Positions 5,251 through 46,329 of a stretch of DNA of 54,719 bases are shown here, in pieces. The position numbers were made by a program, and so were the translations under genes. The notes beneath the pieces were generated by a model. That model had not been told where the DNA came from and did not search any database. It worked only from the letters and a program-made list of their open reading frames with translations. Source of the DNA: a virus. Where the stretch lies: IMG/VR virus record IMGVR_UViG_3300014166_000001, positions 1 through 54,719 of that record, one strand, 5' to 3'. Position 1 is the stretch's first letter. Each line of letters opens with the position of its first letter.

Positions 5251-8200
5251 TTACTCGTTCAACCTGGGCTGAAGTTTTTCCCGGTTGATGATCGACTCAT
5301 GCATTCCTTGTTGCGTGCCGCCGAGTCGAATGATCGCGTTAGCCTCTTTCTCCATGGTCGGCTTATCGTTGTCCTTTAGAGCCTTGAAGTACAGCGAGTA
5401 GTGATGGCCTCGAACGGTCGACAGTGCTCGCTTCCGTATTTCTTCGGCGGGCACACCGTTCCTGGTAGCTGCGTCTGTTATTTCCGACACCATTGACTGA
5501 AGCGATCCTTCTGATGGCTGTTGGCCGCGGAGAAATGATCGGAGTCGGTTTGGATCGGTCGCCAGTTCGTAAACGCTTTCGTATGCGTTCTGAGCCTTGC
5601 TCTTGGTCATCCCTTTTCTGAACGGGACGGAAAGCGCAAACTGGTTTCCGGAAAACACGAACGGAATAGCCTCCTTTTCCACGCTCTTAGCCCGTTGGGG
5701 AATACTCTCTGCGAAAGTTTCGTGGTCCTGTTTCCATGGCTCTTTGAAGTCACCTTCCATTCCGGTGATCTGGTGGAACACTTCGGCCACTGGGCGAGCC
5801 ATTTTCGCCATGACATTCACCTCGGGATGAATGATCCACGCCAAGACCTCCTGCGGTCGTTTACCCAAGTTCACGTAATATCTGGTCGGGTCTTTTTCGT
5901 TGTGCCACGGCAGCATCCTCATTAACGGAGTTATGTCGATGCGCGTGCGTTGGCCAGATTCGTTGTCCCATACCCAAGGTTTGTCCCCTTTACGATCATT
6001 CCCAAAAGCTGAATAGATCGCGTACTGTGTGGCCAGTGTGGCACCGGCCAAAGCGGCCAACTCGCCTGCCCAGAACTTCCCACGTCCAAGGTTTCCAGCC
6101 ACACCTTCCATATTTGCAACACCGGGCTCCCGACCAACCAAGCGTGGAGTTTGAGTTCGGATAATGGAAGCGGCGTCGGACACACCTGGGACGCTACGAA
6201 GCGTTGAAAGAGTCCAGTCCGGGGCGAGGAAGAACCTCGACATTGCGTGCCTCACCTGTGGCGAAAGCCAAAACTTCGTTTGCCATTCCTGGCCGCCGAA
6301 AGCGTCATTGAGGCGAGAGGCAATTTGCTCTTTAACTTGGTTGACGTTTGTGCCTTTTGGAGCATCGGCAAGTGCCTTTGATACCGCGTCGTTGTAAGCG
6401 ACAATCTTGAAAGCGTCGTGGGTGTTTTTCCAAAGTCCCTCCTGCCGCATGTGCTGAATGTCTCGAGCTAGTGCGACGGTCTTACCAAGGTAAGGCACGT
6501 CTCTCCACTTGGCGGCCGCTTTGTCCAGGAAGTCGCGTGCATTGTGCTGGTAACTTTCACTGTCCGTCCACGCAAACTTGAGCCCATGCTTCGCCGCATC
6601 AGCAACGGCCTCCTCGTCTTTGAGCAAGTCCTTGCCCAGTCCTCGTGTCGATCGGAAAGCCTCCAGTTGACCGGTCTGTGGGTTTCTCTCAAATAGTCGC
6701 AACAAACCACGGAACGGGTTAGCCCCCATCATTTCACCACCTGCGGCACTGCGAAGGGTAAGGTCGTGGAACATCGAAAAGGCAAACGCATTGGCTCGGG
6801 TTAGAGCGTTAACAGAGTCATACGCCTTGCCCAAGTCGCTCGATACTGGCTGCTCCAATATCTGGCGCACCGCATTCCAGACGTCCGGATGAATGGCGGC
6901 CCCGCCTTTCCAGATCATAACCCCGTTGGGTGTCTGCCTGGCGTAGACCTTTTGAACCAATGGGTTTTGAGTTATCTCCCATCCAGGAGGGGCGTCCTTC
7001 GCCGGCACAACTGCAGGCTCGCCCGTGGACAACTTCATGTCCTTGAGCGTGTACATCAGTTGTCGGTTGGTCGCCACACGCCAGTTGATATTCGCGTGAT
7101 GCTCGTAAAGCACTGCTGGGTCCTGGGTGATCGGAATAAGGCCAAGGTCGATCGCTTCGCGCACGGTCGGAAGTTTACGAGCCTTCGCGTTGGGCGAGTC
7201 TTTAACAAACCGAGTCAATGCAGATCGGACAGGTCCAGCGGTGCTGTTGGCGTAAAAATGTGGAAGGTAATCTTCGAGGAACTTTAGGTATTCTCCCTGC
7301 TCGGAGTCCTTCAAGTAAGCGTTTATTTCGTTTCGCTGCGCCTCGATCTCAAAGCGATAGGTCTTCGCCAGCATTCGCATAACCGGGCTCATCCGATCTT
7401 TTACGCCGTCAATGGTGTCGCCTGGCAGTTCGATATTACCAATGCCTTCGACAAATGCTCCGACGTCACTTCGATCCGCTTTATTGGGGACTTGCTCCCG
7501 CCATTTATCCGCTGTGACTCGCGCTCGCTGAACACGACTTTCAAACTCTCGCACCGTTCCTTTCACGAGGTCTTGAGCGGCCACGGCGGCCGGTGCGTCT
7601 CGAGCCACCGGATCGGCGAATAATCGTGAGCGAACTTTACCCGGCGTCTCAGTTGGTGCAGCCGCAGGACCGGAGGAAGTCTGTTCGGCGGGAACGGGCT
7701 CGACGTTGCCCTCCAAAAGCTGGTTTATGACTCCTGCGGAGTCTGGGTTGGTCGATAACTGTTTTTCAAAGCCTTCGCTGAACTTCGGAGCCATATTTCG
7801 GGCCGTTTCCGGGTCGTGTGCGTAGAGAGAGAAAAAGTCAGCAATAAGTTCGACTGCGCTTTTACGGTAAGCTTGATGGCCCTTGGTGCCGGTTATCGGT
7901 CCACGCATTAACTCGCTGATCGGGATGAGTTCTTTTTGAAGGTCCTTTCCTGAAGTTCCCGGAACGCGCTCTTCGAGACTGCGTTGTGAACGTGCAAGGT
8001 TTGTCTTTGGCCAGATCAGAGCGTCTATGTCGTGCCCCATTTCGTGGGCAACGGTTAACTGGTTGTGAATGTCCACGACCTCAATGCGATCGTTCTGACC
8101 GATGGAAGCGCGCGCCCGCACGTACTGACCTGCGACACCCTTGGCAAGCGTGACGCGGGAGCGCACTAGTGTTCCTAGCTGTCGACTGGCCTCAAGTAAC

Positions 8201-10743
8201 TCAGCCGCGAAGCCTGGCCCACGATCTGGAACGGACGGGGGAAGCCCGCTGGCTGTGCCGTGCCGTGACATTTCAACGCCAGTCTCGTCCCCGACACCAA
8301 TCTCAGCAGTGTCGCTGTCGGCTTCCACGGGTGGAGGAGTCTGGGCTGCGCCAGCTTCCAAAGCCGATTTCTCCTTCGCGGCAACATTCTCAAGATCGGT
8401 TGCCGTCTTTTCGTATTCACCAAGTCGCTTCTGATTCTCTGTGTAACGCTTTTGAAGGTCGGCCAATTCCTCTAAGCGTTTTGGGGTTTTCTTATTGAGA
8501 GATTGAATTTTTGCTATGGCCTCACGAAAACTCTCTCCACCCACGCGATAATTTTGAGCGGCATCCCTCGCTTGCTCTGCCTTAGCTTCAGAGATCCCCG
8601 CTTTCGTTTTGGAATAAAGCTCATCCAAAAGAGCATCGACTTTTTCAACCTTCTGAGGTGTTTCCGGGTCATTGTCTGGTAGTGCCTCGCGTTGACGCTT
8701 TGCGGATTGCCACGCCGCCTCCGCACTTCCGTATGAATCCGTCAACTTTATGGCTTCTTCAGACAAGTAAGCTTTTGGAACTGGAAGCTTGCCAAATCCT
8801 TCGGGATTCACGGGCAACGCTTTTACCTTTGCGCGAAAGTCAATCAGTGCCTCTTTGGTGTTCGGCACTTTGAAACTTCCATCTCCCGGTATGTCTATGC
8901 TTACTGTTGCGTTAGGAGACTCGCCTTTCTTCAATTCATCATCGATCCGACCAAGCAACTCTTTTTTAACCTCTTTCGCCGGGCGTTGCCCTTCGACAGC
9001 GGCAACCTTGGACACCTCGGCTTGAGCCTTCGCTACGGCTTGCGGCGGGGTTTCGCTGGGTGTAATTGTTCCACGTGGAACATTCCCTGTCTCGCTTAGC
9101 GGCTTACCTGGCTCAGTAGGTGACTCGACCTCGTTGGAGTGGACGGGCTCGCCGGGCTCGAAAGCTTTTAGATCTTGACCGCTGGCCTTGGCTATTGGCC
9201 CAGCCTCTTCCCGGGATATGAACCGGCCTTTGTCGGTCACAAACCCGAAGTCGGACGTATTTCGGCTCTCGGAAGTTTCGAAGCCTTTGATGCCCAACTT
9301 GTCCAGAATTTCAGGGTGATTGGCCCCGGTGTGGACCTGGCCTTCGGCGCGTACGGCGGCTGAGGCAATCTTCTCTGCCGCAGCGGGTTTGGATTCAGCT
9401 TTGGCAATCTTCAATCCCTCGGCAAAGAACTGGGATTTCTGTGCTGCCCCCATCATCGTCTCTTGCCCGTCGATCATCGCTTGCTCTGGTGACTCACCTT
9501 TAGCCTTTGCATCCTCAACAGCCTTGCTCATGTTAGCCATGGCTTCAGAGGCACCCTTCTGTGCATCGGCATACGCCTTCTCCCACGCCGCAACGTCTGG
9601 GTTAGCCCGGAAAGCGTTCTCGGCCGTAACCTGCAACGATGGCCCCTTGCCAGCCATAGCGGTTTCAGTGACGGCCTTGCCCTGTTTGTAGAAGTCTGAT
9701 GGTGATGCCTCTGACGCTGATTTCAAGTCGAGCGTTGGCACGGCGGAAGAAGCCGGAGCCTCCGGAGGCTGCTGGGCGACAGCCGGGGGAGAGGGCTGGG
9801 GCTCCGGAGGTTTTACGACATCTGGTGCTTTCGCTTGAATCGGCGTTTCTCCGACAGGGCGATCGCTACTGACTGTTTCTGCGGGTAGCCGCTGTGGCGG
9901 AGTTCCAGGATATTCTGGCTGACGACTTTGTTCGACTTTCCCTTCTTTAGTGGCATCTGGTGTTACTTTCTCTATTGACGGTATTTCTCCTCTTGAACGC
10001 ATCGAGTTTAGCCCGAGGACCGCCGGAACAATGAGCCCGTTAATGCGATCCCGCTTTTCTTGCGGAGACACGTCGCTATCAACTACAGCCTTAACGTCAT
10101 CCACAATTCCAGGCACCATGGTTGCAAGCAACCCAAGCCCGACCTTCGGGGCGACTTCACCAGCCGCTATCATGCCGATGCTCTCCGGAGTGGTAAGCGA
10201 CTCGAATTGTTTCTGGAAGTCTGTGCCTTCTGGGTCCAACTGGGTTCTTGGCAACTGAACCAAAGGACGTCCCGCGGTGAGTGGTTCACGTAGTGCGGCC
10301 TGTTCCGGTGTCATCTTCCCGATGCCTTCAGGACTTATGATGAACGGTCGCGGTTGCTCGGCCATGGGTAAATATGTCGATGGACTGACAACATCTCGAA
10401 GCGTGCGACCGGCTCCGGCAACAAACTTGCCCAGCAACCCCGGGATAGCTGATAGCGTTGCCCCCAGTTCTGGGAACGCCCCTGGCACATCTGCTCTGGC
10501 TGGTCCAAGTCCTGTGAAACCAAGGCCCAAAGGATCTGCCGCACGGTTAGCCTGTCCTTGCTGTCTCCCCATCTCCGATCCCTCCGCACCGCTTTGAAGC
10601 AAGCGAGTTAGCATCGAAGGCACTTCGGATGAAAAACCAACCCCTAGCTTCAGCGCGTCCTGTTTGGATACAGAAGGAGTAGGCTCATCGAGCGTGAAAC
10701 CCTCCGGCGCATTGTCTGGAATGAAACCAACGGGAGCAGGCAT
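5251..10743 (-). CDS. Giant (1830 aa) virion-associated/ejection protein with an internal zincin metallopeptidase motif (polyvalent-protein-like)
   Basis: Longest ORF, last gene of the tail/internal-protein operon (the position of T7 gp16). HEMGH at 8032-8046. Contains Pro-rich linkers, coiled-coil stretches and hydrophobic segments near the C-terminus. Confidence 0.7.
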   Translation of the reverse strand: MPAPVGFIPDNAPEGFTLDEPTPSVSKQDALKLGVGFSSEVPSMLTRLLQSGAEGSEMGRQQGQANRAADPLGLGFTGLGPARADVPGAFPELGATLSAIPGLLGKFVAGAGRTLRDVVSPSTYLPMAEQPRPFIISPEGIGKMTPEQAALREPLTAGRPLVQLPRTQLDPEGTDFQKQFESLTTPESIGMIAAGEVAPKVGLGLLATMVPGIVDDVKAVVDSDVSPQEKRDRINGLIVPAVLGLNSMRSRGEIPSIEKVTPDATKEGKVEQSRQPEYPGTPPQRLPAETVSSDRPVGETPIQAKAPDVVKPPEPQPSPPAVAQQPPEAPASSAVPTLDLKSASEASPSDFYKQGKAVTETAMAGKGPSLQVTAENAFRANPDVAAWEKAYADAQKGASEAMANMSKAVEDAKAKGESPEQAMIDGQETMMGAAQKSQFFAEGLKIAKAESKPAAAEKIASAAVRAEGQVHTGANHPEILDKLGIKGFETSESRNTSDFGFVTDKGRFISREEAGPIAKASGQDLKAFEPGEPVHSNEVESPTEPGKPLSETGNVPRGTITPSETPPQAVAKAQAEVSKVAAVEGQRPAKEVKKELLGRIDDELKKGESPNATVSIDIPGDGSFKVPNTKEALIDFRAKVKALPVNPEGFGKLPVPKAYLSEEAIKLTDSYGSAEAAWQSAKRQREALPDNDPETPQKVEKVDALLDELYSKTKAGISEAKAEQARDAAQNYRVGGESFREAIAKIQSLNKKTPKRLEELADLQKRYTENQKRLGEYEKTATDLENVAAKEKSALEAGAAQTPPPVEADSDTAEIGVGDETGVEMSRHGTASGLPPSVPDRGPGFAAELLEASRQLGTLVRSRVTLAKGVAGQYVRARASIGQNDRIEVVDIHNQLTVAHEMGHDIDALIWPKTNLARSQRSLEERVPGTSGKDLQKELIPISELMRGPITGTKGHQAYRKSAVELIADFFSLYAHDPETARNMAPKFSEGFEKQLSTNPDSAGVINQLLEGNVEPVPAEQTSSGPAAAPTETPGKVRSRLFADPVARDAPAAVAAQDLVKGTVREFESRVQRARVTADKWREQVPNKADRSDVGAFVEGIGNIELPGDTIDGVKDRMSPVMRMLAKTYRFEIEAQRNEINAYLKDSEQGEYLKFLEDYLPHFYANSTAGPVRSALTRFVKDSPNAKARKLPTVREAIDLGLIPITQDPAVLYEHHANINWRVATNRQLMYTLKDMKLSTGEPAVVPAKDAPPGWEITQNPLVQKVYARQTPNGVMIWKGGAAIHPDVWNAVRQILEQPVSSDLGKAYDSVNALTRANAFAFSMFHDLTLRSAAGGEMMGANPFRGLLRLFERNPQTGQLEAFRSTRGLGKDLLKDEEAVADAAKHGLKFAWTDSESYQHNARDFLDKAAAKWRDVPYLGKTVALARDIQHMRQEGLWKNTHDAFKIVAYNDAVSKALADAPKGTNVNQVKEQIASRLNDAFGGQEWQTKFWLSPQVRHAMSRFFLAPDWTLSTLRSVPGVSDAASIIRTQTPRLVGREPGVANMEGVAGNLGRGKFWAGELAALAGATLATQYAIYSAFGNDRKGDKPWVWDNESGQRTRIDITPLMRMLPWHNEKDPTRYYVNLGKRPQEVLAWIIHPEVNVMAKMARPVAEVFHQITGMEGDFKEPWKQDHETFAESIPQRAKSVEKEAIPFVFSGNQFALSVPFRKGMTKSKAQNAYESVYELATDPNRLRSFLRGQQPSEGSLQSMVSEITDAATRNGVPAEEIRKRALSTVRGHHYSLYFKALKDNDKPTMEKEANAIIRLGGTQQGMHESIINREKLQPRLNE

Positions 10744-24512: not shown

Positions 24513-25823
24513 ATGAAGGAAATATCCGAAGCCCACGCCTGCGTAATTGACGCCGGAACATTTCCCGAAATGGCGGAGGTGCTAAGCCGGTCGTTTGCTC
24601 GAACCAGCTACTACAGCCCGTGGGAAAGTGAGTTTCTGTGCATCGACAAGTGCGTCATTGGTGACGGGTGCGATGGCTTCGACCGAGTTGACGACTACAT
24701 GGACCCGGACTTCTTCAACACTGTGGACCTGTGGGTGTTCCCGGATATTGGCTACGGCGGCCTGCAGCGTTACCTCCGCAGCTTGAATAAACTGGTCTGG
24801 GGCTCCATGGGGGCCAGCGACCTTGAATTGTTCCGCACCCGGTTTCTGTCCGTCATCCACAAGGCCGGGCTGCCGGTGGTAGCCTCGACCCGCTGCAACG
24901 GCCTCACGGAACTGGCCAGCCATCTCAAGGGTGTTAAAAATAAGTGGGTCAAGATCAACCGGTATCGTGGCAACATGGAAACCTGGCACCACATTGACTG
25001 GGATCACAGTGTCCGGATGATCGAGCATTTGGCGTGCGTGTTCGGGCCGATGAAGGAGTATGTTATTTTTGTCGTGCAGGATGCCATTGAAGGCGACGAG
25101 GAAAACCCCGTGTTGGAAGTCGGTTACGATGGCTGGACGGTGGACGGCAATTTTCCAGTGTTATCCTATCAAGGTTATGAAGCTAAAAATCAGCTTTACC
25201 TCGGGTCACTCCTGGCGGCCGACGATATTCCTCAGCCCGTCCGGTTCGTCAATGAAGCCATGGCACCGACACTCGAACAGTACGGGTATCGAAACTTTTG
25301 GGCGACTGAGATCCGTATCCAGGATGGCACACCCTACTTCATTGACCCCACCGCCCGCATGGCCGGCCAAACTATGGAACACCTGCATGAGACTTGCACA
25401 AATCTCGCAGATGTGGTGTATCGGGGTGCCGCGGGTGAATTGGTTGTGCCTGAGTTTAGTGCGCCGTTCGCCGCGGAAGCTACCCTTCACTATACTGCTG
25501 AGACTGATGGCGGCTGGAAAACACTCAAGGTCCCCGAAAGCGTTCGAGACTGGGTGAAGCTGTATCGCTACTGTTGCATCGACGGTATTTACCAGTTCCC
25601 GCCGCACAAAAGCGATGAACTTGGTGTCGTATGCGGGAGGGGAGATACGGTCGAGGAAGCGATCAACGATCTAAAGGATAATTTCTCGGAGATCGAGAAC
25701 GAGCCGGTCAGCATCGACCTTTCGGGCTTTGCGAAACTGATCGAGCAGATCGAGGACGCAGAGGCGGAAGGGGTTGGATTTTCGGATAAACCTTTGCCCG
25801 ACCCTGCGATCGCTTTGCAGTAG
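24513..25823 (+). CDS. ATP-grasp fold enzyme (carboxylate-amine ligase type)
   Basis: KWVKINRYRGNMETW, EYVIFVVQDAIEG, and FWATEIRIQDGTPYFIDPTARMAG (an E..-D/N-P-x-R type Mg/ATP motif). ATG at 24513 follows the TAA at 24503-24505. Confidence 0.65.
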   Translation: MKEISEAHACVIDAGTFPEMAEVLSRSFARTSYYSPWESEFLCIDKCVIGDGCDGFDRVDDYMDPDFFNTVDLWVFPDIGYGGLQRYLRSLNKLVWGSMGASDLELFRTRFLSVIHKAGLPVVASTRCNGLTELASHLKGVKNKWVKINRYRGNMETWHHIDWDHSVRMIEHLACVFGPMKEYVIFVVQDAIEGDEENPVLEVGYDGWTVDGNFPVLSYQGYEAKNQLYLGSLLAADDIPQPVRFVNEAMAPTLEQYGYRNFWATEIRIQDGTPYFIDPTARMAGQTMEHLHETCTNLADVVYRGAAGELVVPEFSAPFAAEATLHYTAETDGGWKTLKVPESVRDWVKLYRYCCIDGIYQFPPHKSDELGVVCGRGDTVEEAINDLKDNFSEIENEPVSIDLSGFAKLIEQIEDAEAEGVGFSDKPLPDPAIALQ

Positions 25824-25923
25824 CAACTTTGTGGGCCACGTAAAGCTTGATGAATTTGTCCGCTAAAGCTTTCTGATATTCTATCCACCACCGTGGAGCC
25901 CTCTTTGCTCGCGCTTTTTTCAT
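25708..25923 (-). CDS. Small basic ORF (71 aa), doubtful
   Basis: ATGA-coupled to the upstream gene, but its 3' 116 nt are antisense to the ATP-grasp 3' end. Confidence 0.3.
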   Translation of the reverse strand: MKKARAKRAPRWWIEYQKALADKFIKLYVAHKVATAKRSQGRAKVYPKIQPLPPLRPRSARSVSQSPKGRC

Positions 25924-26384
25924 AGTGGCGGCTTCTTCCTGAGGTATGACAGGAATAAACTGCACCTGTCCTCCGTCTTGACTGGCATGGTGAGAATATC
26001 CTGAACCGACACCAGGAGCGTGTTGACGTCATCCGAGAGCAGCGGCATTCCAGCGGCTTTCAGTTTGAACTGTGCGTCGTTGAACGCAATGGCGAGGTAC
26101 GCCGCCTTCATATCCCCGTGGCGAGTGACGATCGGACACCCATCGCCCACAAAGGCCATGGCATCGGCAGCCAGCTTGGCGTGGCCATCCCGACCGGTGT
26201 AGTCGACAGCCCCATTCGTATCAGCCTTGATCTCCTGGGCGTGAAACTCCAGATCCAGGGCTTTCTGCATGCGCTCCGCGATCCCAGCGTCCAGGGTGTT
26301 GAATTTCACCACATTCTCCATAAGCGGGTTGACCTGTGGCGGTCGCACCGGGAAAGCCAGTTGCGGGAGTTTGGTTAGAGGCAT
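25920..26384 (-). CDS. Hypothetical protein
   Basis: ORF. ATG at 26384 was chosen because it lies just downstream of the GIY-YIG stop at 26375. Confidence 0.5.
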   Translation of the reverse strand: MPLTKLPQLAFPVRPPQVNPLMENVVKFNTLDAGIAERMQKALDLEFHAQEIKADTNGAVDYTGRDGHAKLAADAMAFVGDGCPIVTRHGDMKAAYLAIAFNDAQFKLKAAGMPLLSDDVNTLLVSVQDILTMPVKTEDRCSLFLSYLRKKPPL

Positions 26385-27034
26385 GTTAATTTTGGTTTGT
26401 AGACCTTCGCCACCCATTGCGCGAGCTCGAAAGGAATTTTCGCTATGGCTGCTGAGGCGGCTTTGCGGGATTTGGATTTGCTGGCATGAGAATACGGCTC
26501 CAGCGTTTTGAACTCACCATTTGCGCGACGATTAGCCCAGTAAGCTCTGATCTTCGCTTTCGTTACCTCGCTTTTTGACTTTCCGGTATGGCCCGCAGCA
26601 ATCTTAGCTCTGTGCTCGGGGGATTTTGGAACTCCTTTGTGGGTTCGGACGGCTGCGGCACGAGTGTTTGGATGACACGGAATCCCGCGGTGTTTGGACG
26701 CGCTACGCTCAATGGAATCGGGCTTATGCTTGTAACCAAACGGCCCCTCGCCGCCATTGCTAAGGTTGTAACCGTTCGGCGCGAGGGAATTAAATCTACC
26801 AATTAGAACGGGCTCCACCTGGCAAAGTTCATACCACGAACTCGCTTCGTGGATGACCTGAATTGAGAATTGTTCAACTCCATGTTTGGCTATTGCGCGA
26901 TTTACTAGCCCGACATTGGGGCGCTTACGTGCACTGTAAACGTGCTCGTTCCATCGCCTTCGGACTCCGCGCGAGGTAATTCCGACGTAGCAGTGTCCAG
27001 TTGCTAAACAGGTGATGAGATAGGCTTGAAACAT
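26375..27034 (-). CDS. GIY-YIG homing endonuclease whose C-terminal about 35 aa duplicate the methyltransferase C-terminus
   Basis: YLITC...HCYVGIT...RRRWNEH (GIY-YIG), GYNLSNGGEG, NUMOD3-like KGVPKSPEHRAKIAAGHTGK, and the tail SKSKSRKAASAAIAKIPFELAQWVAKVYKP. Confidence 0.8.
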   Translation of the reverse strand: MFQAYLITCLATGHCYVGITSRGVRRRWNEHVYSARKRPNVGLVNRAIAKHGVEQFSIQVIHEASSWYELCQVEPVLIGRFNSLAPNGYNLSNGGEGPFGYKHKPDSIERSASKHRGIPCHPNTRAAAVRTHKGVPKSPEHRAKIAAGHTGKSKSEVTKAKIRAYWANRRANGEFKTLEPYSHASKSKSRKAASAAIAKIPFELAQWVAKVYKPKLTCL

Positions 27035-27663
27035 CGGGCAATCCAAGTTGAAAGTTCGATGGGAATTTTTGCTATTTGTGCAGACCACGCCTTTCGATGC
27101 TTACTCTTAGAGCTGAATTGTCGCGCGGAGTTTTCATAATTATCGTAGAACCACGATGGATATCCAAGTTGTTTGCGTGCAATATCGAAAGGCATTAGGG
27201 CTGGAACGTCGCCCCAAAAAAAGAAAGACCCACACCGCGCTTGTGCCCGCCCCACCCACGGCTGAGCCCCGCGAACATTCTCCACAACCATCGGGATAAA
27301 GTGGCCAGCGGCTTCTATCGCCTCGCGTTGAATCCGAAAGCAGGCGCGGAATAAAGCGAGTTCCTTATCAGTCCTCTCACTGGACGCCCGCACTTCCGCC
27401 GCAAGTTTTTTGGCTCTGCTCCAAGGCATAGCGCAATAGCTGAAAAATTGGCAAGGCGGTGACGCTACGATGAGCGCAGCGTCCTTGAATTGCCGACCGT
27501 GAATCGTGAGCACGTCTTGAATGACGAGTTGCGCGGGGTAACGCTTGCCATCGCCGTAGTCGTGGGCCTCGATGTCAAAGCCCACACATCTGTAGCCCTC
27601 GGCTAGTAGTCCTGAAGTCCACCCGCCGATCCCCGAAAAAAGGTCGATTGCCAACGGCTTCAT
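27004..27663 (-). CDS. DNA (cytosine-5) methyltransferase, unusually compact (219 aa)
   Basis: Motif I DLFSGIGG, motif IV PPCQFFS, motif VI ENV, and a C-terminal motif-X-like IAKIPIELSTWIA. Confidence 0.85.
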   Translation of the reverse strand: MKPLAIDLFSGIGGWTSGLLAEGYRCVGFDIEAHDYGDGKRYPAQLVIQDVLTIHGRQFKDAALIVASPPCQFFSYCAMPWSRAKKLAAEVRASSERTDKELALFRACFRIQREAIEAAGHFIPMVVENVRGAQPWVGRAQARCGSFFFWGDVPALMPFDIARKQLGYPSWFYDNYENSARQFSSKSKHRKAWSAQIAKIPIELSTWIARCFKPISSPV

Positions 27664-28865
27664 GTGAGAGACTTACGAGCATCCTCTTCCCAGCTAAGCG
27701 TGTTGCCGGTCGCGCTTTCCTTGCCGCCGCGGCGCCGACCCGGATCAGGTGGATCGTTCTTGTAGGTTTCCAGCTCGGCTTTCAACTCCGTAACCTGTTT
27801 CTCAGCCCGCATGCGCTTCAACTTCTCAACCGCAGCCATAGCAAACCGGTGCCGGATATGCGCGTTCTTCAGGATGCGGTCCTGCACACTGGCCGACTGG
27901 GCATCGAACAACTTAAAGGCTTCCTCGCGCGCGCCGTTCAATTCTTTATCGGTCGGGTCGTCGTGGTAGTCATCCACCGACTCGGCCAACTGCTTTTTGA
28001 CGTCCTCGTACAGCTTGCCCAACTCCGTGCGCTGGGTGATGTGTTTGGCTTCTTCATCCACCGTGCGCTGCTTCCAGTTGGCCTTTTCCTCTGCCAACGC
28101 TTCGGCGGCTTCGCGTTCCATGCCGTCTAGGCTCTTAATGTCGGGCATCACCAGCGTGGCTACCTTATCACCGAAAAGCTGTTCGCCTCGAGCAAGGGCT
28201 TTGTTGGGGGACTGGCGATAAAGCCGGGTCAGTTCTACGAGGTCGTCCAGGCTGCCTTTGCGCGTGGCATTGGTTTCGGGGTCGGTCACGTCCAAGGTTT
28301 CGATGAACCCTTTAGCGCGGTTGGCAGCCTTCTGGAATGGCACCTCGTACTTCTTCCTGAACTCATCGGAGGTTTCATGCTTTAGCGCGCGCAGTTGAGA
28401 CTCCTTCTCTTCCAACTGCTTTTCGAGTGTGCCAAGACGTTCTGTAAGCGTGGCCGTTTCCTTACCCTTAGCCTCGGCATCCTTGATCTTGGCCTCCAGA
28501 TCGGTGACTTGCTTGCTCTTGGTCGCCAGTTCGCCGTTCACACGGTCCAGTTCGGCGCGTAACTGCGGAGGTGCCTTTGGTCCAGCTATCACTTTGTTCG
28601 GGTCGGGCTTGGGTGGTTCAGGTTTGGCGGGCTCCGCTGGCTTGGCCGGCTCAGGCGGTGCATCCGGCTTCTTAGCTAACGGTGAGGCTTTGTCGAAGGC
28701 ATCGGTCAATCGCTTGTCGAAGTCCAAGACGGGATCGCCACCACCAGATGACGGAGCAGGCGAAGGCGCTGGAGCAGCGGCCGGCGCTGGAGATGGTGCG
28801 GGTGCTGGTTTAGCCGGGGCGGCGGGTGCCGCTGGCGCGGGTGGTGGTGTTGCTATTTCGGCCAT
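27660..28865 (-). CDS. Coiled-coil protein with a Pro/Ala/Ser-rich N-terminus (possible scaffolding protein)
   Basis: 401 aa. PAPAAPAAPAKPAPAPSPAP... followed by long charged heptad-like regions. The function is a guess. Confidence 0.55.
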   Translation of the reverse strand: MAEIATPPPAPAAPAAPAKPAPAPSPAPAAAPAPSPAPSSGGGDPVLDFDKRLTDAFDKASPLAKKPDAPPEPAKPAEPAKPEPPKPDPNKVIAGPKAPPQLRAELDRVNGELATKSKQVTDLEAKIKDAEAKGKETATLTERLGTLEKQLEEKESQLRALKHETSDEFRKKYEVPFQKAANRAKGFIETLDVTDPETNATRKGSLDDLVELTRLYRQSPNKALARGEQLFGDKVATLVMPDIKSLDGMEREAAEALAEEKANWKQRTVDEEAKHITQRTELGKLYEDVKKQLAESVDDYHDDPTDKELNGAREEAFKLFDAQSASVQDRILKNAHIRHRFAMAAVEKLKRMRAEKQVTELKAELETYKNDPPDPGRRRGGKESATGNTLSWEEDARKSLT

Positions 28866-28868
28866 AAG

Positions 28869-29150
28869 CTACTTCTTCTTTTTGCGTGGTTTGAGGCTGG
28901 GATCCTCGGGCATGGTTTCGGTGTAATGGATCAAGCCTGGCGATGGGAAAACAAACGATGACTCCTCGGCGTCAGCGATAGTCAAGAGCGTGTGGGCCAT
29001 GAACTCGACCCCGCGCAACTCCTCCCGGGTGGGTCCCTGCTGCGCTATTTGTGCTCGCGCATGCGTAAGGACTTGCTCGAACACTTCACCGCCAGCTATC
29101 GAGCGCCACTCAGACGCCAGCTTTTTGTTCTTAAGAAGTTCCGCACTCAT
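28869..29150 (-). CDS. Hypothetical protein
   Basis: 93-aa co-directional ORF. Confidence 0.45.
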   Translation of the reverse strand: MSAELLKNKKLASEWRSIAGGEVFEQVLTHARAQIAQQGPTREELRGVEFMAHTLLTIADAEESSFVFPSPGLIHYTETMPEDPSLKPRKKKK

Positions 29151-29155
29151 GGCTT

Positions 29156-29431
29156 TTAGTTCGAGTTGCCTCGTACCTGAACGATGTTGCTAGGCTCCTT
29201 GGGTTTCACAAACAGCTTTGCACAATGTTCAATGTCCACCGAAAGGGCATCGAGGCACACGCCGATATTCGCTCCCGTCTTTTGGTGCTGAATGCGGGTT
29301 ATGTTTCCTTCGGCTCCGGTGCTGATGTTCTGCTCGGCTTGGCAATAAGGCTGGCCTTGGGGATTCATCCCGAAGCTAAGGTTTGCGATGCCTCCACGAA
29401 GGAGTTTTTGAATACTTTCACTGGTGTTCAT
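29156..29431 (-). CDS. Hypothetical protein
   Basis: ORF with an internal ATG (MNTSES) downstream of the stop at 29466. Confidence 0.4.
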   Translation of the reverse strand: MNTSESIQKLLRGGIANLSFGMNPQGQPYCQAEQNISTGAEGNITRIQHQKTGANIGVCLDALSVDIEHCAKLFVKPKEPSNIVQVRGNSN

Positions 29432-30491: not shown

Positions 30492-31000
30492 CTCCACCCT
30501 TTCTGCATAACTACATCGAGCCATACCTGATCCGCGGGGAATGGTGACTGCAACGTGCGAGCAAGTTCGGTTGGAATGATCAGCCCGACCGGGCCGCCCA
30601 GTGCTCCGTTGTAGTACTGGCTTTTTCCTAAATAGTAATGCTCAGCGTTGACGGCACAGTCGCAGTTGAACCGGGACAATTCGGTAAACCAAGGCCCTTC
30701 GATATAGGCATCGTCATCAAAAAGGAAACACCATTTGCTGTCGGCAAGCTTTACGAGGTCGTCCACGAACCCGCCCATGTTGTTGTACCCGCTGCCCCTT
30801 TGGCCGACCCAGAACGAGCCGCAGCCTTTGGTCAATTCCTGGGCCAGAAGGATCCGTGCGCCATCGTCGGAGTCCACGCGCAGCAGGATTTCCACCTCGC
30901 CCTTGTTCGTGCCCGGGGCATCGAGGATAGAGGATACGGCCTTGCGTAGCGACTCTTCGGAGCCGCTGCGTGTGGGCATGATGATCGAAACGGTTTTCAT
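30440..31000 (-). CDS. Glycosyltransferase family 2-like (GT-A)
   Basis: MKTVSIIMPTRSGSE...LLRVDSDD...FLFDDDAY. ATGA overlap with the upstream methyltransferase gene. Confidence 0.7.
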   Translation of the reverse strand: MKTVSIIMPTRSGSEESLRKAVSSILDAPGTNKGEVEILLRVDSDDGARILLAQELTKGCGSFWVGQRGSGYNNMGGFVDDLVKLADSKWCFLFDDDAYIEGPWFTELSRFNCDCAVNAEHYYLGKSQYYNGALGGPVGLIIPTELARTLQSPFPADQVWLDVVMQKGWRCNQMHGVSYHHCGRAR

Positions 31001-31773
31001 TCTGATCTTTTCCGACAGGTAATGAGCAAGTGCCAGCCTAGCGCCTTCTCCAGTGACCGGAACATCTCGTGCGGCATGGCTGTGAACCACGGCTCCCAGA
31101 CATACTGGTGCTGAACGTATTTCTCTACCACGTAGGGAAAGATGTGATCTTGATTCAGTTCGATCATATCGAAGTCATCCAACAACTCGTAAACTTGTTC
31201 AGCCGTGAAAGCCTGAACTATAGGGCAGCCGTCCTGAGCCTCGGTGCGGTTCAAACCAGAAGTGATAACTTTCCAAGAGTTACTGGCGTAGAGCATTAGT
31301 TTGAACACTGACTTTTTTCCGAGGTATGCTTGCACAGTATTAACCAACCGGTACGGGTTGTGGCAGTGATGGATTACTCCAAACGAATAGACTAGATCGA
31401 AAGTTTGAGGAGGGATGATCTTGGTTATCTCCTCGGCGTTACCAAGGTACAGCCTTCCTTTGAGCCCGTAGACTTCCAAACGCTTTCGTGTCAGTTCAAG
31501 ACTCACCTCCGAAAAGTCGATCCCGGTGTAGGTTGCTCCAGCCTTACAAAAACTCACGGCGTCTGTCCCGATGCCGCAACCTATTTCCAACACCCGCTTG
31601 CCTTTCCACCTGTCGAACTGAGCAAAGCCTGGAATGTGCGGCTCCACGAAGTATTTGCGTGCTTCGATCTCATCGAAGAATGCTTTCGTGCCAACCTCCG
31701 ACGTAGAATGGCGAATGTTGCATGGCTGACGGTCCCAGTAACTCCTGCTCTCGGATAAGGGGTCGGTGGTCAT
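30997..31773 (-). CDS. Class I SAM-dependent methyltransferase
   Basis: Motif I VLEIGCGIGTD, followed by GIDFS and a Rossmann-like pattern. Confidence 0.8.
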   Translation of the reverse strand: MTTDPLSESRSYWDRQPCNIRHSTSEVGTKAFFDEIEARKYFVEPHIPGFAQFDRWKGKRVLEIGCGIGTDAVSFCKAGATYTGIDFSEVSLELTRKRLEVYGLKGRLYLGNAEEITKIIPPQTFDLVYSFGVIHHCHNPYRLVNTVQAYLGKKSVFKLMLYASNSWKVITSGLNRTEAQDGCPIVQAFTAEQVYELLDDFDMIELNQDHIFPYVVEKYVQHQYVWEPWFTAMPHEMFRSLEKALGWHLLITCRKRSE

Positions 31774-41546: not shown

Positions 41547-42989
41547 GTGGGCTGTAACACCAGCGACATTTTGGGAACCGCGTACCGCACTGGTTACGCG
41601 AAACTATCGGCGCGCGATCTCAAGGTTGCCGCGATAGCCGCAGCGTGCTCGACGTGCAACGCTCAACCCCTGATTGAGGGGGCTATTGGTAACGGCTACC
41701 TCAAGCTGACGGAGTACGAGACGGCCATGTGCATCGCCAATGCGCTTTGCTCGTCGCCTGGAGCGACAGGGGCGCCGGCTCCAATAGCACTAGCAGCGGC
41801 CATGCAGAATCACTTGGCCTCTATGAGCCGTAGGGATCTGGATGCTGTCATCACCGCTGTCCTGTGCAAGCAGACCAATCCTCCTTGTGTCACCCCATCA
41901 GCTCCGCTTAATCCAACGGCGAAGGTCACTACCGCCACGACCATACTGGTTACTTGGAACCAGTTGCCTAATGCTGGAAGCCTCATATTAGGATATACTG
42001 TCAAGTGGGGAACGGTTTCGGGTGTCTACCCCAACACGGCGACCGTGGCGGCTATTCCGAAAAGTTACACGATCACCGGCCTAACGGCTGGAACTCAGTA
42101 TTTCTTTGTCGTGGTGGCCAACTCATTCTCTGGATGTTCCTCTGCCAACTCGGCTGAGAGTTCAGCAACGACAACCGGGGCAGTGGCATGCAGCGCGGCA
42201 TCCCAGGCTTTCGTAGCGGCGTGGGTGGCAACAGTAGTAGCCAATGGCGGTGCAGCACCTTCAGCGGCGACACAGGCTGCAATATGTGCGTTTCAGGATG
42301 GGTTGGTAGCTGACGGACTTGATACACAGATGCTTCATTGGAACGCGATTGTTCCAGACAACTTAATTGCCGCTTTTACACCTCAGCTTTTGGGACTTGG
42401 AACAAGGGCGGTTTGGACCAATTCGGGTCCATTCGTGATTGGCGATCTAACGGTGGACGGGCTCAAGGGGGACGCAGTGGGCAAATTCTCCGCTACTGGA
42501 GTTGCTCCCAGCACAATATTCTCAAGTGACGATGACTGCGGGATCTCAATTTATCTATTTACAAATCCCAACTCGGCTAGTTGCGACATTGGTGTGACCC
42601 AGGGGGCAAACCTCACCTCGATTCAACCGTTCGCTGGCACCACGTTTTTTGATTCTTACGCTATCGCCGGTCGCATTAGCGCGGCCAACGCTGGGTTCGT
42701 TGGGTTCATTTCCGGCAATCGTGTAGCCGGGCCTACCACCTCAATTTACGAAGCCAGTTCGACTGTGCCGTTCAATACGTTGGTTACGGCGAATGTGGCT
42801 GCGGGCGGAAATAGGCCAGCAACGGAATATTACGCCTGGGCGATGGATAACGGAGGGGTGCAAGCGTCGCTATCCGACCACAGAATGTCGTTCATTGGGT
42901 TCCACCACGGACTCACTGCCGCTAATGATCTAAAGCTTTTCAATCGAGTCCAGGCATTGCGTGTAGCACTTTTGGGAGGTTTCAAATAA
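41547..42989 (+). CDS. Repeat + fibronectin type III + C-terminal beta-rich domain protein (receptor-binding or decoration candidate)
   Basis: GTG start. Repeats KLSARDLKV..., KLTEYETAM..., SMSRRDLDAV... FN3: ILVTWNQLPNAGSLILGYTVKWG...YTITGLTAGTQYFFVVVA. Confidence 0.6.
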   Translation: MGCNTSDILGTAYRTGYAKLSARDLKVAAIAAACSTCNAQPLIEGAIGNGYLKLTEYETAMCIANALCSSPGATGAPAPIALAAAMQNHLASMSRRDLDAVITAVLCKQTNPPCVTPSAPLNPTAKVTTATTILVTWNQLPNAGSLILGYTVKWGTVSGVYPNTATVAAIPKSYTITGLTAGTQYFFVVVANSFSGCSSANSAESSATTTGAVACSAASQAFVAAWVATVVANGGAAPSAATQAAICAFQDGLVADGLDTQMLHWNAIVPDNLIAAFTPQLLGLGTRAVWTNSGPFVIGDLTVDGLKGDAVGKFSATGVAPSTIFSSDDDCGISIYLFTNPNSASCDIGVTQGANLTSIQPFAGTTFFDSYAIAGRISAANAGFVGFISGNRVAGPTTSIYEASSTVPFNTLVTANVAAGGNRPATEYYAWAMDNGGVQASLSDHRMSFIGFHHGLTAANDLKLFNRVQALRVALLGGFK

Positions 42990-45120: not shown

Positions 45121-46329
45121 TCAGTCCTTTTTGGTAAACCCGTGATATCTGCCAGCGTCATCAAGCATCTCGCGGAACTTGGTGTCTTTGGTGATCGTCT
45201 CGGGCTTTTTAGCGCGCCCGTTGTATTCAGTCTCGACCTTAAAGTTGGCCCAGAGCCCGAACAGGTATTTCTTTTCCAACTCACCCAAGACCACGCCAGC
45301 CTGTTTCCCGAACGGCATTGGAAAACTACGCCATGCCTCGACGGTCTCAGGCGGCGTTGCGGGCTCGGCGGCCCGCGCGACCTCGACCGGTTTGGCCAGC
45401 TTGGGCTCGCTTTCCCCATTCGGCGGGAACGCCGGCTTTGCCTCGGCGCCTTCGGTGAAAGAGACAATCGCCACTTTCAACGCCTCAAACTGCTTCTTTG
45501 TCACAGGAACGAACCGTAGCGGCAGGTCGGCCAGGCTCTCGGTCGGGAGGAGATACCCGACCTTCTGAAAGTACTCCAGGGCGGGCTGTGCGAAGTCCGC
45601 CAAGCTCTCGATCAGCTTTGTGCGGCTTTCCGGGGTAGCAGGCTCGATTGTGGGCTTCGTAGACGCAGCCGCTACCGGTTGGGGCTCATTCTGAGACTTG
45701 CCCCCTACCTTGATACCCTCTTTTTTGTCCTGGGGCATTTTAGGAGGTTCTTCCCCACTGGTTATGCTGTCATCGTCGGAGTCACCGGTTAAAATGCCCA
45801 AAGCGTTGCAAAACGCATATCTTTTCGCAAAGGTGAGAGCAGAGGCGAACTTTTGGGCCGCGTTCATGTAAGCTTCCGGGTCGATTGGGACCTTAAACTC
45901 GCTTTTCTCGCTGTGCCCCAGGCAATGCTTGACGGTGCAAACCGCCGTCACCCAGTCCTTGTCAACGATGGCTGTCTCGGTATGAGACAACCCATGTTTT
46001 TCGAGCAGTCCTTTGACTTGGGATACAATAACGTCCAGCGGGGCGAACCGGTAACGGACGGCCGTGCTGTTCTTCTGGTGGACGACTTGGGACTTTACGA
46101 TCACCGGACATTCAGCCTGGAACGCGGCGAGGGAGCGGTCAAAGGCTGACCGGGCGGCTTCTGCTTGCAGCTCTCGGCGCATTACCATCAACCGCTCGAG
46201 CACTTCGACGGCGGCTTTAGCGTCAACGGCCTTTTCGAGCAAGCCCTCGACGTTTATGCCGGCTATCGCGCCCGAAGCAATGGGGACGGGCAAAAGGTCG
46301 CTCATGTTTCCCTCTCGGATCTTGAACAT
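45121..46329 (-). CDS. erf: ERF-family single-strand annealing protein with a long C-terminal extension
   Basis: RYRFAPLDVIVSQVKGLLEKHGLS..., AQKFASALTFAKRYAFCNALGILTGDSDDD (ERF signature). Confidence 0.8.
   Translation of the reverse strand: MFKIREGNMSDLLPVPIASGAIAGINVEGLLEKAVDAKAAVEVLERLMVMRRELQAEAARSAFDRSLAAFQAECPVIVKSQVVHQKNSTAVRYRFAPLDVIVSQVKGLLEKHGLSHTETAIVDKDWVTAVCTVKHCLGHSEKSEFKVPIDPEAYMNAAQKFASALTFAKRYAFCNALGILTGDSDDDSITSGEEPPKMPQDKKEGIKVGGKSQNEPQPVAAASTKPTIEPATPESRTKLIESLADFAQPALEYFQKVGYLLPTESLADLPLRFVPVTKKQFEALKVAIVSFTEGAEAKPAFPPNGESEPKLAKPVEVARAAEPATPPETVEAWRSFPMPFGKQAGVVLGELEKKYLFGLWANFKVETEYNGRAKKPETITKDTKFREMLDDAGRYHGFTKKD

Follow-up and report, generated by a model that had tools for sequence, protein, structure and literature searches.

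Why should the reading frame of a phage homing endonuclease end like a DNA methyltransferase? The question is raised by a locus in the 54,719-nt stretch of DNA analyzed here, hereafter the window (IMG/VR virus record IMGVR_UViG_3300014166_000001; a complete 54.7-kb phage-like contig), in which two minus-strand open reading frames (ORFs) of 219 codons each, one for a predicted member of the C5-cytosine methyltransferase (MTase) family and one for a GIY-YIG endonuclease, overlap by 31 nt and close with similar sequence. A first interpretation, made from the letters alone (the sequence-only reading), took the end of the endonuclease for a duplicated MTase C-terminus, left behind when an intron-less endonuclease invaded the 3' part of the MTase gene; the ORF coordinates and the overlap that it described match the program-made ORFs. 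We consider it quite probable that a free-standing GIY-YIG homing endonuclease did invade the MTase gene, that an imported end now completes the MTase, and that the tail fused to the endonuclease is the one that the gene had before the invasion.

The similarity of the two C-termini is significant at the protein level. Residues 183-214 of the MTase align without gaps to residues 183-214 of the endonuclease, with 20 of 32 positions identical and 25 of 32 positive (BLASTP, single comparison, E 4e-4), and when the endonuclease was compared in six frames with the whole 54.7-kb window by tblastn, the MTase tail was the only significant non-self match (E 1.9e-7). The direct repeat listed first by a repeat finder in positions 25800-28000 has a 32-nt core with 75% identity (26424-26455 versus 27053-27084). 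In codon register, however, the DNA of the two tails is 51% identical, and 15 codons differ synonymously only against 12 that change the amino acid; the tails are therefore two old homologues, and a recent local duplication is excluded and was rejected. The homology perceived in the sequence-only reading is thus real, but the tails are not copies of one another: as judged by these comparisons, they derive from two long-separated lineages of one large MTase family. The C-terminal position and the pattern of the tail (…IAKIPxxLxxxIA), and these alone, suggest motif X of C5 MTases, in line with its earlier description as a conserved C-terminal motif of these enzymes; the Pfam DNA_methylase model (PF00145), whose match spans MTase residues 6-77 only, stops short of the tail region.

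Motifs I (DLFSGIGG), IV (PPCQ) and VI (ENV, within VVENV) are all present in the MTase itself. Its AlphaFold2 (AF2) model, with a predicted local distance difference test (pLDDT) score of 87 and a predicted template-modelling (pTM) score of 0.85, has DNMT1, DNMT2, M.HaeIII and 3g7u as its best Foldseek matches, at a probability of 1.0 but with TM-scores of only 0.33-0.43. The tail of the MTase (tail A) is modelled as two helices, at residues 188-198 and 202-212 (pLDDT 76-94). Residues 160-190 are predicted with low confidence, and the segment 156-174 aligns weakly to the motif IX region of 3g7u.

Two lineages meet in the methyltransferase

The MTase family is very large and metagenomic, with at least 8000 candidates at an E-value of 0.001; a division into two lineages, A and B, was taken from the best 120 of these. 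In the A proteins, 30-39 residues (…WFYDNYENSARRF…) lie between the sequence WGDVPALMP and a tail with RK.WSA; in the B proteins, a variable insert of about 37-170 residues lies between WGDVPALMP and a tail with RKAASA. The tail of the window MTase is of type A and the tail on the window endonuclease is of type B. A-type enzymes, of about 200-220 aa, have their tail directly after the short segment that follows WGDVPALMP (residues 156-190 of the window MTase), and appear to be nearly devoid of a target-recognition domain. The B-type inserts (in P0007, P0027, P0029, P0047, P0063, P0070 and P0098) are made up of recurring short modules that vary in order and number, among them GMNWSDRSIKGQDFTR(V/I)AGQQAEGVK, LPGNNGPRRWDEREVxRLCDA and NGKGDAWFQDG, and these may be shuffled target-recognition modules.

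The two parts of the window MTase have their closest relatives in different lineages. For residues 1-158, the 36 closest relatives are all B-type (78-89% identity), and over core columns 1-135 of the 119 best-scoring family members the best B relative reaches 92% (P0010) and the best A relative 78%. For residues 159-219, the closest relatives are all A-type (62-75%), the B proteins listed having 26-49%, and in a sliding-window comparison the identity to the B group drops after about residue 135-140. By blastn, the core is 80% identical to L081 and 76.5% to L082, both of which are endonuclease-free alleles; the similarity covers 27245-27662 and ends at 27243-27245. Similarity to an endonuclease-free B allele returns sharply at 26483, inside the endonuclease ORF, and continues to the stop codon: positions 26378-26483 are 85.8% identical over 106 nt (E 4.5e-28) to the tail of the endonuclease-free P0013 (L082/L083), and in the first 50 nt of the stub 49 are identical to the L082 tail. 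The approximately 760 nt between these two junctions, that is, MTase codons 140-219 and the endonuclease as far as …PYSH, have no counterpart in the endonuclease-free alleles. The composition of this insert is foreign: the GC content at third codon positions is 0.41 in the A-type segment, 0.52 in the endonuclease, 0.57 in the stub and 0.64 in the MTase core, and 0.66 and 0.72 in the flanking genes.

The discordant halves, the junctions and the composition together lead us to conclude that the resident gene was of B type and that its variable region gave way to an A-type 3' end together with the endonuclease. The result is a hybrid MTase, with a B-lineage core joined to an A-lineage end. The hybrid, the sharp junctions and the shift in composition, as well as the census of loci described below, support the earlier proposal that an intron-less endonuclease invaded the 3' part of the MTase gene; the make-up of the hybrid and its junctions likewise agree with the view that one tail keeps the MTase complete while the other was left in frame on the endonuclease. 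Two points of that proposal can be refined. The fused tail had been left as either the older or the donor copy; it is the older, resident one, and it was the tail completing the MTase that came with the endonuclease. The exchange also went beyond the tail: the imported block is longer and begins at about codon 140.

A metagenome contig that holds two tails from different lineages might also be a chimera in which assembly has joined two MTase alleles. Such an artefact is barely conceivable here and was rejected: the same architecture recurs in contigs of many samples and sources that are independent of each other (IMG/VR, ENA, JGI, Logan and a Gallionella metagenome-assembled genome, MAG, from NCBI), no reading frame is broken, and the block fits exactly into the operon at either end.

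The endonuclease and its fused tail

The endonuclease ORF matches the GIY-YIG family of Pfam (PF01541), and a profile of its clade matches the catalytic domain of I-TevI (1mk0, E 1.2e-4). Residues Y5, Y16, G18, R27, H31, E74 and N90 are invariant in an alignment of 24 relatives; these residues, taken as catalytic, and the I-TevI match are the reason why we count the integrity of the endonuclease in favor of an invasion. The match to NUMOD3 is weak (E 0.46), and some relatives carry precomputed PF07460 matches. The protein collection holds 197 relatives, several of which were named 'group I intron endonuclease' by their sources, and the enzyme is predicted to be related to I-TevI and to the Seg enzymes. 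Neither a zinc finger nor a helix-turn-helix DNA-binding domain was detectable in this clade by Pfam or by alignment. The C-terminal domain is longer in a related group (P0165, P0215 and others), where it ends …IWKIAxGLKW; we read this longer domain as helix-turn-helix-like. Automatic gene calling performs poorly on such overlapping ORFs: the window endonuclease was called as a protein of 147 aa (P0121), the 154-aa gene downstream of it as one of 133 aa (P0241), and in L107 an antisense ORF of 196 aa (1139-1708) was called in place of the endonuclease.

A C5 MTase adjacent to a GIY-YIG nuclease on the same strand could also be a type II restriction-modification pair, in which the nuclease would be a restriction enzyme like Eco29kI or Cfr42I; restriction enzymes of the GIY-YIG type do exist (PMC2241918). 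For this locus the idea is highly improbable and was rejected. The nuclease matches the I-TevI type, with NUMOD3-like repeats, and relatives of it are annotated as intron or homing endonucleases. Across loci it is found upstream of the MTase, downstream of it or in company with no intact MTase, so that there is no fixed pairing; MTase alleles with and without the nuclease coexist, and fragments of MTase flank it.

What, then, is the tail doing on this protein? The sequence-only reading regarded it as foreign to a homing endonuclease. Conversely, it could be a working part of the enzyme under selection, either a pair of DNA-binding helices in place of a helix-turn-helix or a piece that docks onto the MTase. 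About a third of the clade has the tail in frame (34 of 100 members), the clade is devoid of the longer helix-turn-helix-like domain of the related group, and AF2 predicts the same two helices in the stub as in the MTase. Moreover, the window stub differs from the functional L082 tail mostly by synonymous changes (seven codons synonymous-only, four amino-acid-changing; for four or fewer amino-acid-changing codons out of 11, binomial P = 0.008 under neutrality). We nevertheless find a working tail quite unlikely, and as a genuine endonuclease domain it was rejected, on account of the decay of the stubs and the interspersed tail-less forms. Forty of the 100 clade members end a few residues after PYxH, with about 14 more in the related longer-domain group, and tail-bearing and tail-less forms are interspersed on a neighbor-joining tree of these 100 members. 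The stubs are frameshifted in L092, L095 and L107, and partly deleted in frame in P0158, P0199, P0200, P0205, P0176, P0192 and P0149, where the deletions take out different parts of the tail (…AH-AKIP…, …AH-SAMIAKIP…, …HSS-RHIG…, ARKAASA-AVYRP). In the AF2 model of the window endonuclease (pTM 0.48), the helices of the stub have pLDDT values of only 46-72 and the stub is not packed against the rest of the protein. Finally, the near-identity of the stub DNA to the tail of a free-living MTase argues for a recent capture from an MTase gene, and the low number of amino acid changes would fit a young remnant recently captured from a working gene. Because some stubs are frameshifted or partly deleted, we regard the tail on the endonuclease as a remnant of an MTase gene and not as an endonuclease domain, and in this the claim of foreignness was correct.

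Some details of the stubs deserve mention. In the frameshifted stubs of L092 (2358-2441) and L107 (1690-1770), the stop codon is a TGA that arises from ATG-AT(T/A), the Met-Ile codons of …SAMIAKIP…, in the shifted frame. More of the tail is retained at the junction in the window (PYSH-ASKSKS-RKAASA) than at the common one, PYxH-ARKAASA. A tandem repeat of 6 nt (AAATCCAAATCC) makes up the KSKS codons, and slippage in this repeat could have given rise to the shorter junctions.

Related loci and the genomic slot

We compared the DNA of about 30 related loci, drawn from IMG/VR, metagenomes, a Gallionella MAG and single look-ups, and found three architectures (Table 1). In the first, a full A-type MTase is followed by the endonuclease and a B-type tail stub; 11 loci have the full A-type MTase followed by the endonuclease, and the B-type stub comes next in 10 of them. 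In all 11 architecture-1 loci the MTase ends in '…CF(K/R)P/H' at the junction with the endonuclease, and in 11 of 11 compared the endonuclease starts within these codons in the same relative frame (ATG; GTG in L089, L096 and L107). The ending is a marker of invaded genes, and it correctly predicted an uncalled endonuclease downstream of P0019. The second architecture is the mirror image: an N-terminal MTase stub, the endonuclease and then a B-type MTase, which is full-length where the contig allows. This layout is found in 11 loci, with a clear motif-I stub in at least five (L087, L091, L093/94, L101). The stub is of 4-35 aa (…LAIDLFCGLGG), is fused to the endonuclease or lies just before it, and has 46-62% DNA identity to the intact MTase gene; the MTase starts at or near the stop codon of the endonuclease, an overlap being seen directly in L003. 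In the third architecture, found in four loci that represent two distinct elements, there are stubs on both sides and no MTase body.

The third group bears on the nature of the tail, since the sequence-only reading had named tail-bearing endonucleases that do not adjoin an MTase as evidence for a genuine tail module. At first sight L004/L005/L102 and L095 are of this kind, but all of them keep an N-terminal MTase stub; they are therefore best seen as MTase genes that appear to have been gutted by the element, and not as evidence for a genuine endonuclease domain. The family is also polymorphic for the presence of the endonuclease: invaded alleles are found in the window, L001, L002, L084-L106 and L107, and endonuclease-free alleles in L081 and L082/L083 (B-type) and in L108 (A-type, without the CFKP ending).

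At every locus the endonuclease is bounded by MTase-derived sequence on both sides, the upstream piece being A-like and the downstream piece B-like. This regularity would also be expected if the endonuclease had first settled between two tandem MTase genes, A upstream and B downstream, and deletions had then given the present layouts: loss of most of the downstream gene would leave the endonuclease with a tail stub, and loss of most of the upstream gene a motif-I stub with the endonuclease. The widely varying stub lengths and the many different in-frame junctions, which resemble independent deletions, suit this scheme as well. We think it unlikely all the same. Two complete flanking MTase genes were found at none of the approximately 30 loci, the B-lineage core of the complete upstream gene in the window would be left unexplained, and so would the 49 of 50 identities between the 5' end of the stub and a free-living B allele, when the relatives of the endonuclease have at most 71% protein identity.

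In the window, the block formed by MTase, endonuclease and stub is part of an operon on the minus strand. At its upstream end, the start codon of the MTase and the TGA of the 401-aa gene overlap (ATGA); at the other end, the codons for the final residues of the endonuclease ORF (…TCL*) belong to the start region of the 154-aa gene, which has 12 full-coverage homologues of 149-154 aa (nine of exactly 154) with the same start Met. Homologues of the 401-aa gene lie just upstream of the homologue of the 154-aa gene in L109-L114, and neither an MTase nor a credible endonuclease was found in these six loci by tblastn (one chance-level match, E 0.29). In L112/L113, a 405-aa gene directly abuts the 154-aa gene with an ATGA overlap (L112 5001-5004); the slot holds an ORF of about 66 aa with CxxC…CxxC in L109-L111 (L109 172-361) and a 71-aa ORF in L114 (3253-3468). 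Between its 401-aa and 154-aa genes, this phage group thus has a site at which the cargo varies. Whatever gene comes next after the 401-aa gene begins exactly at the ATGA overlap in L109-L111, L112/L113 and the window, and the ORF in L114 about 30 nt further downstream. A 7-nt sequence, ATGCCTC, is common to the 3' end of the L082 MTase (…AAGTTATGCCTC…) and the 154-aa gene at its native start (ATGCCTCTAACC) (window 26375-26392 versus L082 5680-5708 and L109 355-375), and may have served as a microhomology for the first entry of the MTase gene into the slot.

Table 1. Features of the invaded locus and of the related loci. Positions are those of the window unless a locus is named.
Feature	Position or loci	Strand	Remarks
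C5-cytosine MTase ORF	27004..27663	-	219 aa; complete but hybrid; Pfam DNA_methylase E 1e-7
Resident MTase part, codons 1 to ~139, B lineage	27245..27663	-	B relatives have a long variable insert and RKAASA tail
Imported MTase 3' segment, codons 140-219, A lineage	27004..27244	-	Short WFYDNYENSARQF segment and tail A (RKAWSA…IELSTWIARCFKP)
Tail A	27022..27114	-	C-terminal two-helix tail of MTase; endonuclease-linked variant '…ELSTWIA(R/K)CFKP'
Overlap of MTase and endonuclease ORFs	27004..27034	-	31 nt; endonuclease ATG inside tail A codons R-C-F-K-P
GIY-YIG homing-endonuclease ORF	26375..27034	-	ATG 27034, stop 26375; 219 aa; Pfam GIY-YIG E 3e-8; native MTase tail at its end
GIY-YIG catalytic domain, ~aa 1-95	26750..27034	-	AF2 pLDDT ~95 over residues 1-90
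Endonuclease linker	26486..26749	-	NUMOD3-like repeats and clade-specific end AYWAxRRAxGxFKTxxPYxH; no helix-turn-helix domain
Tail B stub	26375..26485	-	Original 3' end of the invaded B-type MTase (ASKSKSRKAASAAIAKIPFELAQWVAKVYKPKLTCL*), in frame with endonuclease
MTase, endonuclease and stub block	26385..27663	-	Accessory insertion absent from syntenic relatives
Upstream 401-aa gene	27660..28865	-	Proline/alanine-rich N-terminus; left border of accessory slot
Downstream 154-aa gene	25920..26384	-	ATG (26384) 10 nt inside end of endonuclease-stub ORF
Architecture 1 loci	window, L002, L084/85, L088, L089/90, L092, L096, L103, L104, L106, L107; L001		In L001 the contig ends inside the endonuclease, stub not seen
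Architecture 2 (mirror) loci	L003/97, L006, L087, L091, L093/94, L099/100, L101, L105
Mirror coordinates	L093/L094 2719-4418; L101 3-1531; L087 22-1001; L091 2786-4358
Architecture 3 loci	L004/L005/L102 3833-4609; L095 1396-2186		N-terminal stub (VKPL… / …YDLCCGLE) and tail stub

A second variable slot lies on the other side of the 154-aa gene: L109 carries a Methyltransf_21 gene and an AP2/HNH_3 endonuclease-like gene (912-2058) between the 154-aa gene and the next conserved gene, where the window has about 100 nt (25823-25920). Other endonuclease-type genes are found nearby in L115 (Endonuclease_7) and L081 (HNH). Elsewhere in the window are a primase-helicase (Zn-ribbon/Toprim/DnaB_C, T7 gp4-like; 664-2316), an ORF of 1830 aa with no Pfam match (5251-10743), a second methyltransferase (phrog_22502, E 2e-65; 30997-31773), a protein with a fibronectin type III domain (41547-42989) and an ERF-family recombinase (45121-46329). 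PHROGs and Pfam gave almost no matches for 20 window ORFs, including the immediate neighbors of the block. No sign of a separate transcription unit was seen in 25500-29300, where one promoter-like sequence was found against 1.9 expected, and two terminator-like sequences against 5.0, from shuffled sequence. A blastn search with 25800-28900 of 50,697 GenBank phage records gave no match. Scans of IMG/VR with the endonuclease as a single protein or with the two flanking genes returned nothing; an alignment-based scan with the endonuclease did find loci.

Proposed invasion and comparison with known systems

We propose the following route, modelled on established free-standing phage endonucleases (PMC2988022) and on mobile endonuclease ORFs (mORFs) of mitochondria (PMC3630166). 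The endonuclease clade would specialize in one family of small phage C5-cytosine MTase genes, and the resident gene would have been of B lineage before the invasion. The incoming cassette would have carried the 3' part of an A-lineage MTase (codons ~140-219, with a complete tail) and, directly behind it, the endonuclease ORF, the start codon of which would have been embedded in the last codons of the imported tail. The enzyme would cut endonuclease-free alleles close to where the variable region meets the tail, and an invaded allele would be the template for repair of the break, with the conserved MTase core and the tail presumably acting as homology arms; the ERF recombinase encoded by the phage could take part. 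Co-conversion of flanking sequence would create the hybrid and may change the variable module. After repair, resident codons 1-139 would be joined in frame to the imported A-type end, so that the MTase stays complete, and the endonuclease ORF would run on into the resident tail and use its stop codon; the overlap of this stop with the next gene's start leaves the layout of the operon unchanged. An invaded allele would probably be immune to re-cutting, with the cleavage region replaced and tail A strongly recoded, and the stub would not contribute to the activity of the endonuclease. The sharpness of the junction on the right and a stub that is almost identical over its first 50 nt suggest that the site of insertion or cleavage lies at the tail's 5' border and that resection on that side was slight. 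The cleavage activity of the endonuclease, its target site and the activity of the MTase are predictions.

The arrangement also has possible consequences for expression. A GGA, contributed by the W-I codons about 8-10 nt upstream of the endonuclease ATG, is a putative ribosome-binding site; the 31-nt overlap without a strong ribosome-binding site suggests low, coupled translation of the endonuclease, and the in-frame stub may preserve translational coupling to the 154-aa gene.

Several observations weigh against this account. Close relatives of the phage yielded no endonuclease-free MTase allele at this position: the syntenic L109-L114 have no MTase at all, and the endonuclease-free alleles that we know come only from unrelated genomic contexts. 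The invasion may therefore predate the arrival of the block and have taken place in another genome. No close donor was found either, the best endonuclease relative having 71% protein identity and the best locus with DNA (L001) 66% DNA identity. Across 10 loci, the divergences of the MTase core, the C-terminal segment and the endonuclease are uncorrelated (Spearman -0.11 to 0.09), a result that speaks neither for nor against the import of a single block; the MTase segment and the endonuclease may have arrived in separate events. Lastly, most stubs are still in frame and protein-like, and the low amount of amino acid change in the window stub also fits selection on the stub.

With these reservations, we favor the invasion of a B-type MTase gene by a free-standing endonuclease that brought an A-type end along. 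A wider form of this idea is more speculative, and we put it forward as a tentative suggestion that may well prove wrong: the clade would be a dedicated parasite of this very large MTase family, for which the two conserved coding ends of the genes, at motif I and at the C-terminal tail, would be homology arms that it finds in any genomic surroundings; it would home into any member, exchange the variable or C-terminal module at each invasion and so shuffle MTase specificity, and sometimes destroy genes, across unrelated phages.

The locus would be a sequence record of how a free-standing homing endonuclease can settle in a coding region without an intron or an intein, by bringing a replacement for the end of the gene. 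It would also tie a family of endonucleases to the abundant small MTases of phages, with 3', 5' and gene-destroying forms that may serve as a series for the study of colonization, change and decay. If it is true that invasions swap the variable module, phage methylation patterns could change, and hence the protection from host restriction. There is a lesson for annotation too, in that gene callers truncate or miss overlapping ORFs of this kind.

Among known systems, the endonuclease itself is most readily compared with those of T4-like phages. The free-standing Seg (GIY-YIG) and Mob (HNH) endonucleases home without introns and with co-conversion of flanking markers (PMC2988022, PMC2330249). 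Like the Seg enzymes, the window endonuclease is the product of a phage-encoded, intron-less GIY-YIG gene, and like several Seg and Mob ORFs it overlaps the end of the upstream gene (segC by 20 bp, segF by 11 bp, mobA by 23 bp and mobC by 24 bp, as compared to 31 nt in the window) and has no strong ribosome-binding site. The hybrid nature of the MTase would be explained by double-strand-break repair, which replaces flanking sequence as it does in the spread of Seg and Mob genes. These, however, normally lie between genes or split a gene (nrdA in Aeh1, gene 60 in T4), whereas the MTase gene is neither split nor merely flanked: its end has been replaced and the old end retained. The word 'duplicat' does not occur in the review of T4 endonucleases (PMC2988022), which describes splits and overlaps only. 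With I-TevI, encoded in the td intron of T4, the window enzyme shares a homologous catalytic domain and a modular build in which this domain is followed by an extended linker; it differs in that the window has no intron and the clade no detectable zinc finger or helix-turn-helix.

For the replacement of a gene end carried by an endonuclease, our literature searches brought up no example in phages or in MTases; the anatomy of the locus matches the mORF gene hybrids known from fungal mitochondria. Such hybrids have been described for atp6 of Allomyces macrogynus, for atp6, atp9, cox2 and nad3 of Glomus sp., for atp9 of Rhizopus and for cox2 of Mortierella (PMC3630166), and in Endoconidiophora partial C-terminal duplications of atp6 and cob are flanked by GIY-YIG or LAGLIDADG ORFs (PMC6279837). 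The order of parts is the same, namely the core of the host gene, a foreign in-frame C-terminus, the endonuclease ORF and the native C-terminus downstream. The native remnant is in both cases near to endonuclease-free relatives in DNA (91% in Glomus atp6; 86% in the window, with 98% over the first 50 nt), the two C-termini, though similar in protein, differ strongly in DNA (63.5% identity in mitochondria, 51% in the window), and some of the mitochondrial hybrids are also in phase with the endonuclease ORF. The window differs in that the host is a bacteriophage and the target a non-essential accessory C5 MTase instead of a respiratory gene. In addition, the native remnant is translated as part of the endonuclease and provides its stop codon, the start of the endonuclease is overprinted on the imported tail, and the phage family has, besides the form seen in the window, a mirror form with an N-terminal stub and a form in which the gene is gutted.

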